Assembly (NCBI GenBank): GCA_947175575.1
Contig: CAMWNG010000003.1
Location: 9,796-73,795, forward strand
Source: an uncultured Bacteroidales bacterium
GTDB lineage: Bacteria > Bacteroidota > Bacteroidia > Bacteroidales > Muribaculaceae
Direction: 5' to 3'
Length of the DNA stretch: 64,000 nt
A program made the position numbers and the translations under genes. Below the pieces are notes generated by a model. It saw nothing but the letters and a program-made list of their open reading frames with translations. It was not told the origin of the DNA and ran no database searches. This document shows, in pieces, positions 61,090 to 64,000 of this stretch. Every line of letters starts with the position of its first letter. Within the stretch, counting starts at the first letter, position 1.

Positions 61090-61135
61090 TAAGGCAAAGG
61101 CGGGCGCTGAAAAATCAGCGCCCGCCTTTGCCTTA
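61090..61135. terminator. perfect 21-bp hairpin between convergent genes (bidirectional terminator)
   Basis: taaggcaaaggcgggcgctga - aaaa - tcagcgcccgcctttgcctta. Confidence 0.75.
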
Positions 61136-61156: not shown

Positions 61157-61450
61157 TCAGAGCACTTTCTCCACTTCGGAAATAAGATCGTCAGCGGATA
61201 TTTCGCCGGAATGGCGCCATTTCTCTGCACTGTCCTTATATATAATAAATGTGGGAACGACCTCCACTTTGGCCGCGTCGGCATCCGCTTCGCAAGCATC
61301 GATGTCATATTGAGCCACGCGGGCACGGTCGGTCAACAGATTTTTCACTTGTTCCACCACCGGCATCATCTTGCGGCAGTGAGGGCACCATGAGGCATAA
61401 AATTCCACCAGGACCACGCCCGGCTGAGCGATTTCTTCTTTGTAAGTCAT
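61157..61450 (-). CDS. trxA: thioredoxin
   Basis: WCPHC active site, 97 aa. Confidence 0.9.
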   Translation of the reverse strand: MTYKEEIAQPGVVLVEFYASWCPHCRKMMPVVEQVKNLLTDRARVAQYDIDACEADADAAKVEVVPTFIIYKDSAEKWRHSGEISADDLISEVEKVL

Positions 61451-61484
61451 AGGTTATTGGGTTAGTAGTTCAGATACCTATACA

Positions 61485-62120
61485 ACGCCTCCGTCACCCC
61501 TAAAGTTCACCCCCGACGCGCCAACAAGCGGACCACGACGGTCTCCGCCGTGGCTGCCAACCCGACAAAACCAGGGACCCGCGCACGTCCCGGGCGCATT
61601 GCCTTCCCAACACAAAAGGACGCAACCACCCCTTCCGGCTACACCCGCGCAGCCGGGACGTCTGCGCCTCCCTGCCACGAGCCACCAACCCGGCAAAACC
61701 GCCCCTTCCGGCTACCCCGCCGCGTCCGGGACGGCCGCGGTCCGAACACTTGCGGCCGCCCCTCGGACCACGACGGTCTCCGGCGTGGCTGCCAACCCGA
61801 CAAAACCAGGGACCCGCGAACGTCCGGCGCTGCCAATCCGACAAGAAGGGACGCGCGAACGCCCCGGGCGCGTCTGCCAACCCGACAAGCCGGACGAAAC
61901 CACCCCATCCGGCACTCCCGCGCGCAGCCGGGACGTCTGCGCCTCCCTGCCACGAGCCACCAACCCGGCAAAACCGCCCCTTCCGGCTACCCCGCCGCGT
62001 CCGGGACGGCCGCGGTCCGAACACTTGCGGCCGCCCCTCGGACCACGACGGTCTCCGGCTTGGCTGCCAACCCGACAAAACCAGGGACCCGCACACGTCC
62101 CGGGGGCGTTGCCTTCCGGA
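61485..62120. repeat. GC-rich (C-rich on + strand) mosaic tandem repeat, about 2.3 copies of a 235/275-bp unit built from about 42-bp palindrome-bearing sub-repeats; non-coding
   Basis: cggaccacgacggtctccg starts at 61529, 61764 and 62039. 61649-61825 matches 61924-62100 with 3 mismatches. Sub-repeats beginning ctgccaa(c/t)ccgacaa start at 61554, 61789, 61830, 61874 and 62064. All six frames are open. Confidence 0.85.
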
Positions 62121-62241
62121 CAAAAATGTCATTCCGTCAACACATTCCTGTACGCAGTGGGCGCAAAAATATTGCGCCCCTACCGAATTGTTAAAATAAA
62201 AATTTCACACATATTTATATTGCAAAATATAAATATATTTT

Positions 62242-62249
62242 ATATCTTT
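62242..62249 (+). promoter_or_regulatory. -7 promoter box (TATCTTTG) for the Big_2 surface-protein gene
   Basis: Exact TAnnTTTG match in a very AT-rich stretch, with a TTG at about -33 (62220-62222). About 170 nt upstream of the ATG at 62420. Confidence 0.45.
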
Positions 62250-62419
62250 GCGGGAAAATTAGTCGAGGCATGTTCACACACCTGACCAAAACCATTCGAG
62301 CCACCGGCCGACTGTACAAATCGGCGCGGCGAATCAAAGTCTGCCTCACTTCCGAACCAATCGATTCACAAAAATAACCAATCAATCAAGATAGAACAAC
62401 TAACCAATCTCACAACAAT

Positions 62420-64000
62420 ATGAAAAAATTATTACTTTTTCTATTCGCTGCCATAGCCGCCCTCGGCCTCCACGCCGAAACTGTTGTAATGGTAGCACCT
62501 GGAGCCTCATATAATCCAACTAATGACGATGAGGCAAAATATGAAACTTCTGTGACTGCTCAAGGAAAGCAGTCCGGGACTATCAATGATTACATTAGTT
62601 ACGAATTTGAGGAAGCTACCTTTCGTTCTGACAAGCAAATTCGTCTAAATGCAAAAAAATATATAAAATTTAGTACTTCTGATAATATCAGTATTACTGA
62701 AGTCGTTTTTAATTGTACCTCCGCCTCCTATGCTAATATAACATATAATAGTAACGCTCTATCAAAAAATGGAGCAGTTCAAACATGGAATGGCACAGCT
62801 ACAGATGGTCTAATATTTAACACTAGCTCACAGTCAAGAGTAACCTGGATTAAAATTACCTATCAAACTACCGGTCCGAAAGAACCAGTCGATTACACAT
62901 CGTTACCTTCATTTGTTGATGTTATACTTGGAAATACAGCATCTGTCTATCTTGGTGAAACGCATCCCGAAATCACTTGGTCTTCTGCTGACGAAAACAT
63001 TGCTACCGTAGAAAATGGTGTTATAACCGGCGTAGCCAAGGGTTCAACAACTATTACAGCAACCTGGAATGCTGTTGAAAATGAATGGACTGCCGGTTCA
63101 GCCGAAATCAAGGTTAATGTTGCCGGCATCCCAACAATGTCTTTGATTAGTAGCACAGATGATCTCGAACTCGGGAAGTTTTATGCGATAGCATACAATA
63201 ATAATGTGGCTTCCACCGCTGAAAACTCCAATAAATTTTCTTCAGTTGAAGTAGCCATTGAAAATAATACTTTCAAAGCAAACGACGATGTGTTATTGTT
63301 CACCTTAATCGATAAAAACGATCAAGGTAATTACCTTATCCGGCTTGTGAACTATAACGGAACAAACGAGTATATCTCTACGACCTCAGGTGAGACATCT
63401 ATTTATAAGGTAAACGAATCAAGCGCCAAGTATGCCTCTATCAGCTTTACAACACAGAAAAATGTAAATATTTCATTTACGAGTACAACTGACCGCACTA
63501 TAAAATGGGGCACCAGTACCAAAGATTTTAGGAACTACGCATCTTCTAATGGAGCTGCTATTCAACTCTACAAAGAAGTTGAGCCGGAGATTGTAGAACA
63601 AGAATATTACCGTCCCCGCTGGAAAGAACAGACCCTGCAGGTAGGTAACCAATTTGCACAGGCTACTATTGCTCTCGGATATGAACATCCTGAGGTCATT
63701 TTCTCTTCAAGCAACGACGAAGTCGCTACCGTTGAAGGCAATGTTGTGACTGCTAAAGGCGTAGGTACGGCTATCATTACCGGCACATGGCAAGATAGTG
63801 AAAACTGGTTCGGCGACGCACGCGCGTTCCGCGTAAATGTTATCGGCAATAAGAAAGACCCCAATCTGCGATTCCAGCATGAGATCATCCACGGCAAACT
63901 CGGCGTGGGTGTAGCAGCTCAGGCAGCTCTCTACGACGGTGACGGTGAACTCACCTACGAATCGAGCAATGAATCGGCTGTTACTGTTGATAAAAAGACA
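62420..64000 (+). CDS. secreted/cell-surface protein with repeated bacterial Ig-like (Big_2) domains, N-terminal part (ORF runs off window)
   Basis: My own translation of frame 2 gives MKKLLLFLFAAIAALGLHA|ETVV..., with no stop through 64000 (527 codons). Big_2-like segments are ITWSSADENIATVENGVITGVAKGSTTITATW, VIFSSSNDEVATVEGNVVTAKGVGTAIITGTW and LTYESSNESAVTVDKKT. It is missing from the supplied track, presumably because no stop occurs in the window. Confidence 0.8.
   Translation, partial: MKKLLLFLFAAIAALGLHAETVVMVAPGASYNPTNDDEAKYETSVTAQGKQSGTINDYISYEFEEATFRSDKQIRLNAKKYIKFSTSDNISITEVVFNCTSASYANITYNSNALSKNGAVQTWNGTATDGLIFNTSSQSRVTWIKITYQTTGPKEPVDYTSLPSFVDVILGNTASVYLGETHPEITWSSADENIATVENGVITGVAKGSTTITATWNAVENEWTAGSAEIKVNVAGIPTMSLISSTDDLELGKFYAIAYNNNVASTAENSNKFSSVEVAIENNTFKANDDVLLFTLIDKNDQGNYLIRLVNYNGTNEYISTTSGETSIYKVNESSAKYASISFTTQKNVNISFTSTTDRTIKWGTSTKDFRNYASSNGAAIQLYKEVEPEIVEQEYYRPRWKEQTLQVGNQFAQATIALGYEHPEVIFSSSNDEVATVEGNVVTAKGVGTAIITGTWQDSENWFGDARAFRVNVIGNKKDPNLRFQHEIIHGKLGVGVAAQAALYDGDGELTYESSNESAVTVDKKT

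Follow-up and report, generated by a model that had tools for sequence, protein, structure and literature searches.

What kind of DNA fills the spacer between a thioredoxin gene and the gene for a Big_2-domain surface protein in a gut Muribaculaceae genome, and is it there for the sake of either gene? The spacer lies in a 64-kb window (the whole stretch of DNA that was analyzed), and the question concerns positions 61485-62120 of that window, hereafter the block. An earlier note on this DNA had described the block as very C-rich and T-poor on the plus strand, and that composition was found where the note had placed it: C 283, G 170, A 121 and T 62, equal to 71% GC and 10% T on the plus strand, in a window with an overall GC content of 50%. 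A scan of the window identified the block as the sole long island of at least 68% GC outside called genes; a small island at 967-1092, of which only the sequence was read, lies beside that count. We consider it probable, with reservations given below, that the block is a lineage-restricted, non-coding, GC-rich minisatellite with higher-order units, built up by tandem duplication and gene conversion and lacking a dedicated function. It is genuine but ordinary repeat DNA with no evidence of regulating either neighboring gene; most probably it is neutral or selfish, and not a structured RNA, gene or G-quadruplex switch.

Anatomy of the repeat array

The array comprises 2.3 tandem units, of 235 and 275 nucleotides (nt), built from four module types per unit, which we designate H (25 nt), A (41-46 nt), B (73 nt) and C (92 nt); all coordinates of the array are on the plus strand. 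Its left junction is a unique C-rich lead-in (61508-61528) directly after CCCCTAAAGTTCA, the last sequence in common with the sister species described below, in which the local alignment (to L002) ends at AAAGTTCA. Unit I (61529-61763, 235 nt) was delimited by the module map and the repeat families and consists of H1 (61529-61553), A1 (61554-61598), B1 (61599-61671) and C1 (61672-61763). Unit II (61764-62038, 275 nt) has, on the same module map, H2 (61764-61788), A2 (61789-61829), an extra module A2' (61830-61873), B2 (61874-61946) and C2 (61947-62038). Unit III (62039-62126) is partial, with H3 (62039-62063), A3 (62064-62109) and a truncated B head (62110-62126, TGCCTTCCGGACAAAAA), and has 91% identity to unit I. 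A non-repeated tail of ~60 nt (62127-62190) follows the array on the right and is also absent from relatives, with similarity to L002 resuming only at ~62195. The tail contains a perfect 8-bp hairpin (GGGCGCAAAAATATTGCGCCC, 62159-62179) and, according to a motif scan, a minus-strand match to the Bacteroidetes -7 box (TATTTTTG, from 62171 down to 62164).

The repeats are far in excess of chance. The 19-mer CGGACCACGACGGTCTCCG occurs three times (61529, 61764 and 62039; 0.02 copies expected), giving the periods of 235 and 275 nt, and the 15-mer CTGCCAAYCCGACAA, with which the sub-repeats start, occurs five times (61554, 61789, 61830, 61874 and 62064; 0.29 expected). The segment 61646-61825 recurs at 61921-62100 with only three mismatches, at 61785, 61818 and 61819, and Tandem Repeats Finder, one of the checks that the earlier note had proposed, detected the 41-44-nt sub-repeat at 61778-61888. 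The note had read these periods, sub-repeat starts and long recurrence, the single extra module of the longer copy (unit II) and the coordinates of its named hairpins correctly from the sequence.

Modules A, B and C share a common plan: each starts with (C/T)TGCC, continues with a CCAACCCGRCAAAACC-like motif and then has a short GC hairpin. B and C modules are 82-83% identical over their common part, and at the tail of module B the A hairpin segment returns in inverted form (22 nt, 82% complementary). Units I and II have 94.8% identity, except for the one extra A module of ~40 nt in unit II. The identity between units is uneven, being 100% for C1 and C2 in the window, ~97% for the H-A part and ~70% for the B heads, which fits recent duplication or gene conversion. 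Successive rounds of tandem duplication with gene conversion usually leave nested repeats of this sort, the last unit of which is partial. The repeats were found nowhere else in the window or in the next 7.45 kb of the contig (71 kb in total).

From this anatomy we infer that an ancestral sub-repeat of ~40-70 nt, consisting of a short GC hairpin and the motif CTGCCAAYCCGACAA, would have given rise to the A, B and C modules by duplication and divergence, and that the whole H-A-B-C unit would then have duplicated in tandem to 2.3 copies. The latest step would be the 275-nt duplication, the copies of which are still 98-100% identical; one A module may have been gained or lost along the way, and gene conversion would keep shuffling variants among the copies. 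The seed sequence may either have arrived as a mobile element similar to the repetitive extragenic palindromes (REPs) or have arisen on the spot.

The locus in relatives and a homologous array elsewhere

Relatives of the locus were found via the adjacent histidine-phosphatase gene (His_Phos), and the named homologues were from Muribaculaceae. The nearest homologue on record has 85% identity and belongs to a sister species (L002/L046); no other strain of the window species was on record. In the sister species the thioredoxin and Big_2 genes are adjacent, as they are in the window, with a spacer of 418 nt versus 970 nt in the window, and similarity stops at the left junction given above and resumes on the right at the Big_2 promoter. 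The sister-species spacer contains ~120 nt of GC-rich sequence that is not significantly similar to the block (score of 20 versus 19.3 ± 2.3 for shuffles), and homology between the block and the GC-rich blocks of the sister species was rejected based on alignment scores equal to those of shuffles. A short resemblance remains between module H (GGACCACGACGGTCTCCGCCGTG) and the L002 unit (GGAGCCACGTCGCTCCGCGGTG). In a further relative (L009, His_Phos 84% identical) there is no thioredoxin gene and no GC-rich block of any kind, and the Big_2 promoter is kept. In relatives at ~70% identity, the spacers upstream of thioredoxin are 155-216 nt long with 31-35% GC. Given its absence from the orthologous spacers of the nearest relatives, the block is not conserved in the control region of thioredoxin or of Big_2, and this comparison of sequences speaks against its having a conserved role in regulating either of them. 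In the ~70% relatives (L003 7449-8771, L048 9343-10685 and L051 1912-3227) thioredoxin is followed by a gene of the VKOR (vitamin K epoxide reductase) family and faces a polysaccharide-export operon. The window and the sister species both lack the VKOR gene and have Big_2 as the neighbor, which implies that the junction was rearranged.

We infer that the block occupies a dispensable spacer upstream of two divergent promoters and would have no dedicated function for thioredoxin or Big_2. Any effect it has would be a by-product, for example, of its hairpins, of weak terminator-like sites on the minus strand or of the extra distance between the promoters.

One relative of the block itself was identified. 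The 214-amino acid (aa) open reading frame (ORF) on its plus strand had a single meaningful match among 1.84 billion representative proteins, P0122 (E 1e-15), a protein of 235 aa called on a single 14.9-kb contig (14,904 nt) other than that of the window. P0122 could be aligned to plus-strand frames 1, 2 and 3 of the window (E 6e-25, 3e-42 and 4e-33, respectively), based on which the homology is at the level of the DNA and is broken by frame-shifting indels. Module H is present in P0122 three times, as DHDGxRRGCQP at residues 2 and 79 and, in another frame, as GPRRSPAWQP at residue 162; these copies are spaced ~231 and ~249 nt from one another, and the intervals contain A-, B- and C-like segments. 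One other genome therefore has a homologous array of ~700 nt in which the units follow the same order. Weak tblastn matches of P0122 in relatives were rejected, being inside the His_Phos coding sequence and driven by composition. A second protein, P0121 (1,727 aa), has 17 tandem units of ~100 aa and looks like a translated long tandem DNA repeat; its E value of 8e-16 was summed over 17 weak stretches, and it was rejected as the translation of an unrelated satellite that matches by composition.

Searches of wider collections gave no further family members. A motif scan of 185,579 species genomes produced 31 single matches in unrelated taxa and phyla, versus ~35 expected by chance (a hand estimate), none of which was similar by blastn, and the same kind of scan of JGI metagenomes produced three matches, also at chance level. 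The pattern used for both scans narrowly misses variants of the P0122 type, which have CCGACCAAGCC and CCGTCAAAACC in place of CCGACAAAACC. Nothing was found in viral contigs with scans for the exact 19-mer, the 17-mer or the P0122 protein pattern, in plasmids and phages with blastn, or in plasmids with tblastn of P0122.

In the alternative that survives best, the block would be one cluster belonging to a dispersed, mobile family resembling REPs and bacterial interspersed mosaic elements (BIMEs) or MITEs (miniature inverted-repeat transposable elements), the units of which were moved by a trans-acting transposase or by recombination and piled up locally. We consider this possible but unlikely. 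It is favored by the P0122 array, which is in another genome and has no established link to the thioredoxin/Big_2 locus, and by the tail of module B, which as an inverted A hairpin segment resembles paired REP units. BOX and BIME elements, too, are assembled from modules and vary in their number of subunits. It is favored, too, by the fact that the sister species has a GC-rich family of its own, a 45-nt repeat with the consensus GCCACnnnKCTCYGCGGTRnnRGGYGCGCGC, at two separate spacers in direct and inverted orientation. The ~120-nt spacer stretch is one copy, and three further direct copies and also inverted ones are in a 400-nt block between Big_2 and mutL (score of 55 versus 18 ± 2), so that the four direct copies and the inverted ones lie on both sides of Big_2 (L002 7761-7805 and 11382-11687, equal to L046 11761-11805 and 15382-15687). 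No copy of this family is present in the window. The larger of the two sister-species blocks was called as a 152-aa "gene" without a Pfam match, a call that is probably spurious.

Weighing against a dispersed family is that there is a single locus in 71 kb of contig and that the genome collection and JGI metagenome scans gave chance-level matches only. Moreover, an abundant family would be expected to give more than one translated relative among the representative proteins, based on the logic that long T-poor blocks tend to be called as ORFs. No terminal inverted repeats join the two ends of 61508-62190 and no target-site duplication was seen on reading both the right and left junctions against L002, and a MITE was rejected on these grounds. 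The earlier note had seen no mobile-element gene nearby, and indeed the gene calls over ~20 kb around the block include no transposase or other mobile-element gene. In addition, the stems (5-6 bp) and loops (8-13 nt) are out of line with those of the tagged REP families (PMC3733652).

A bolder proposal, which we hold to be rather more doubtful, is that the H-A-B-C unit represents an undescribed family of modular GC-rich Muribaculaceae elements, a Bacteroidota counterpart of BIME and BOX. Lineage-specific families of this sort would repeatedly colonize the spacers around the fast-evolving surface-protein gene, and the order of the modules would be kept by selection, for example, as a structured RNA of the minus strand or as an insulator or recombination element between the divergent promoters.

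Several observations must be set against the preferred reading, that of a minisatellite with no dedicated function. The H-A-B-C order persists in the P0122 genome at only ~50% translated identity; from a purely neutral array one would expect the unit order to vanish, so some constraint or concerted evolution is at work. The block as a whole folds better than shuffled sequence (z ~ -3.7 on both strands, 20 shuffles), and it has four terminator-like sites, all on the minus strand. Finally, the block is GC-rich and strongly C-skewed in a genome of ~50% GC, for which duplication alone is no explanation.

RNA structure, assembly and coding potential

The earlier note had proposed that the hairpin stems differ between copies and yet still pair, as would be the case under selection on structure, and had likened the block to REP/BIME elements. 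The likeness is a fair description of the kind of element; the selection on structure that was inferred from the hairpins did not hold up. The A hairpin (GGGAC-N8-GTCCC) has the same stem letters in A1 and A3, has lost its outer pair in A2 and in A2' has an A·C mismatch, yet also a newly gained inner G-C pair. The B/C hairpin (CCGGCT...AGCCGG) has lost its top pairs in B2 and C. In each of the two hairpins, none of six pairs was changed on both sides, although the power of this covariation test is low with three to four distinct copies, and the differences between copies break or shorten the stems. Folding of single modules was no better than that of shuffles of the same composition (z from -2.9 to +0.9), and much of the folding excess of the whole block comes from the inverted copies of one 22-nt segment. 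With no compensatory change in any stem and no module that folds exceptionally, there is no sign of selection on structure.

The G-quadruplex potential that the note had ascribed to the minus strand was likewise not borne out. No canonical motif was present on that strand with loops of up to 7 or up to 12 nt, where shuffles had 0.8 and 2.0, respectively, and its G-runs numbered 27 versus 28.8 in shuffles; a G-quadruplex promoter element was rejected in view of the absence of motifs.

We also weighed whether the block is transcribed on the minus strand, either as a long G-rich leader of thioredoxin or as a separate structured RNA, with its hairpins acting in attenuation or RNA stability. Support for this would come from the -7 box match TATTTTTG at 62171, which points into the block, from the fold of the minus-strand RNA (-359.6 kcal/mol, z -3.7) and from the stem mismatches of H1 and A2', which are G·U on the minus strand and A·C on the plus strand. 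Each sub-repeat on that strand reads as a hairpin followed by UUUUGUCGG, and the four terminator-like sites are there; the scanned region had six such sites versus 2.3 ± 1.4 in shuffles. However, the plus strand gives an equal z-score, the -7 box match is at chance level (three such matches in 2.8 kb, part of it AT-rich) and has no TTTG -33 box with it, and the motif scan found no promoter motif within the block. Nor is the element present upstream of thioredoxin in any relative examined. Rfam gave no relevant match at the gathering threshold for the whole window, and at E up to 10 for 61300-62450 the best match had an E of only 0.84, with unrelated families. A structured RNA family was rejected given the lack of an Rfam match and of any pair changed on both sides among the three to four distinct copies, and we judge transcription into a functional RNA to be improbable.

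Since short-read data resolve 275-nt repeats of 98-100% identity only with difficulty, the tandem structure could in part be an artefact of the assembly of this short-read metagenome-assembled genome, with the copy number or module order wrong, or, in the extreme version, the block could be foreign contamination. Comparison of the window with the matching NCBI contig record JAIDXY010000074.1 (GCA_029058395.1) revealed three differences over the 7.8 kb compared, at 61693 (G/T), 61706 (T/A) and 61716 (C/A), which recurred in a 1.2-kb comparison around the repeat. It counts toward an artefact that all three are in module C1. At 61706 and 61716 the NCBI record has the letters that sub-repeats B2 and B1 carry at the equivalent positions, and the variant at 61693 (CCGTCAAAACC) is seen again in P0122, so the three differences point to gene conversion or to mis-placement of reads among the repeat copies. 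Because the two records differ at three bases that are all inside the repeat, the copy number and fine sequence are provisional. Conversely, the two versions have the same length and module order, both flanks are syntenic with the sister species, so there is no chimeric join, and an independent genome has a homologous block whose units are in the same order. Based on the syntenic flanks and the independent homologue, the block is real, and we regard an artefact as quite improbable.

The block is non-coding. Among the module and unit lengths (25, 41-46, 73, 92, 235 and 275 nt) only that of A1 (45 nt) is a multiple of three, and none of the repeat periods (235, 275, 41, 44 and 73 nt) is divisible by three, so identical DNA is read in different frames along any ORF. 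As the note had observed, ORFs overlap the block on both strands, at least eight of them of at least 40 aa. No Pfam match was found for six ORFs of the block, the 210-aa minus-strand ORF had no homologue among 5.8 billion protein clusters, and no gene was called in the block in the NCBI record. That the block encodes a low-complexity Pro/Arg/Gly-rich protein can be practically discounted: it has in its favor the long ORFs on both strands and the calling of P0122 as a protein on another contig, and against it that T-poor sequence gives ORFs in every frame through composition alone, that one ORF reads the identical units in different frames, that P0122 matches all three plus frames, and that Pfam and the NCBI record give no support.

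Flanking features and comparison with known element classes

The flanking genes are as the earlier note had placed them, including the thioredoxin start at 61450 and the promoter and start of Big_2. Thioredoxin, the left neighbor of the block (61157-61450, minus strand, 97 aa), was identified from its ORF and a Pfam Thioredoxin match and has 73% identity to the sister-species protein. Between it and the convergent His_Phos gene is a long perfect hairpin (61091-61134, AAGGCAAAGGCGGGCGCTG ... CAGCGCCCGCCTTTGCCTT), which is probably a bidirectional terminator. On the right, the variable region is limited by a conserved AT-rich segment outside the repeat (62198-62250, plus strand), which is presumably the Big_2 promoter or operator. 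It is nearly palindromic, with 24-nt arms that are 79% complementary, has a -7 box (TATCTTTG) at 62243 in the motif scan, is 82% identical to L002 and is also visible upstream of Big_2 in L009. Similar hairpins with A/T-rich centers are found at the edges of GC-rich blocks in both species, GGGCGCAAAAATATTGCGCCC in the tail described above and GGGACGCAAAATTTTGCGTCCC at L002 11521-11542. The Big_2 gene is AT-rich, with 33-44% GC versus 55-65% in its neighbors (62421-64000 and beyond; L047 5801-8962), and its protein has 52% identity to that of the sister species, versus 81% for MutL, 85% for His_Phos and 73% for thioredoxin. As a surface gene it either evolves fast or has been exchanged.

Catalogues of REP/BIME/BOX-type elements are poor for Bacteroidota; a literature search on REP-type elements in Bacteroidales/Bacteroidetes found nothing relevant, and none was found described for Muribaculaceae. 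The block and the unrelated family of the sister species show that GC-rich blocks turn over quickly in these gut bacteria. Such blocks yield spurious gene calls, P0122 and the 152-aa L002 "gene" being examples, and are weak points of short-read metagenome assemblies. A copy number that varied between strains would make the locus a possible strain marker.

The earlier note knew of no described class of element in Bacteroidales that matches, and neither Rfam nor Pfam supplied one. Two further candidates were readily set aside. A CRISPR array was rejected given that the sub-repeats abut without unique spacers and that no cas genes were called around the block. A template/variable repeat pair of a diversity-generating retroelement was rejected by inspection, as the block is non-coding and upstream of a gene, with no reverse transcriptase called within ~20 kb.

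REPs are palindromes of 20-40 nt with an unpaired GTAG or CGTC tag and stems of 5-13 bp, often with an associated RAYT (IS200/IS605-type) transposase, and those with CGTC have stems of 8-9 bp and loops of 4-5 nt (PMC3733652). In the block the A and B/C hairpins are of the wrong size, with stems of 5-6 bp and loops of 8-13 nt, and the CGTC of module H sits inside its 9-bp stem. Unlike REPs, with their tag and RAYT (PMC3733652), the block thus has no tag, and no RAYT was called within ~20 kb. BIMEs of E. coli and other enterobacteria are similar to the block in being intergenic and non-coding, in being mosaics of short GC-rich imperfect palindromes and linkers, in the partly inverted orientation of these and in their tandem repetition in variable number. 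In contrast, BIMEs and REPs are dispersed in hundreds of copies, for the most part at operon 3' ends, whereas the block is one locus in 71 kb.

The BOX elements of Streptococcus pneumoniae, boxA-(boxB)n-boxC, are modular and intergenic with predicted hairpins. As in the block, where A compares with A + A', one internal module of ~45 nt varies in number. BOX differs in being AT-rich, in having >100 copies per genome, in the absence of arrays of whole units and in having no sequence similarity to the block. Mycobacterial interspersed repetitive units (MIRUs) and other variable-number tandem repeats (VNTRs) are GC-rich tandem units of 40-100 nt that grow by slippage or unequal recombination. They share with the block both this composition and their location in intergenic spacers. 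However, MIRUs occupy ~40 loci per genome and are often small ORFs coupled to flanking genes, whereas the block is known from one locus in 71 kb and its units are themselves composite, forming a higher-order repeat.

The closest described case in Bacteroidales is BrickBuilt of Porphyromonas gingivalis, a MITE/minisatellite whose unit is 23 nt long and whose leader and tail subunits have inverted-repeat ends, with 19 copies per genome and demonstrated promoter activity (PMC4596501). Like the block, BrickBuilt is species-restricted, always intergenic and a tandem minisatellite without spacers, located between coding sequences near promoters. The block differs from it in its units of 235-275 nt made of 25-92-nt modules, in having no inverted ends and no internal promoter motif, and in being a single locus in 71 kb. 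With head-to-tail units of 10-300 nt in non-coding DNA, the block fits the generic definition of a bacterial minisatellite and only that one; it is similar in kind to REP/BIME, BOX, MIRU and BrickBuilt elements and, on the preferred reading, a member of none of them.

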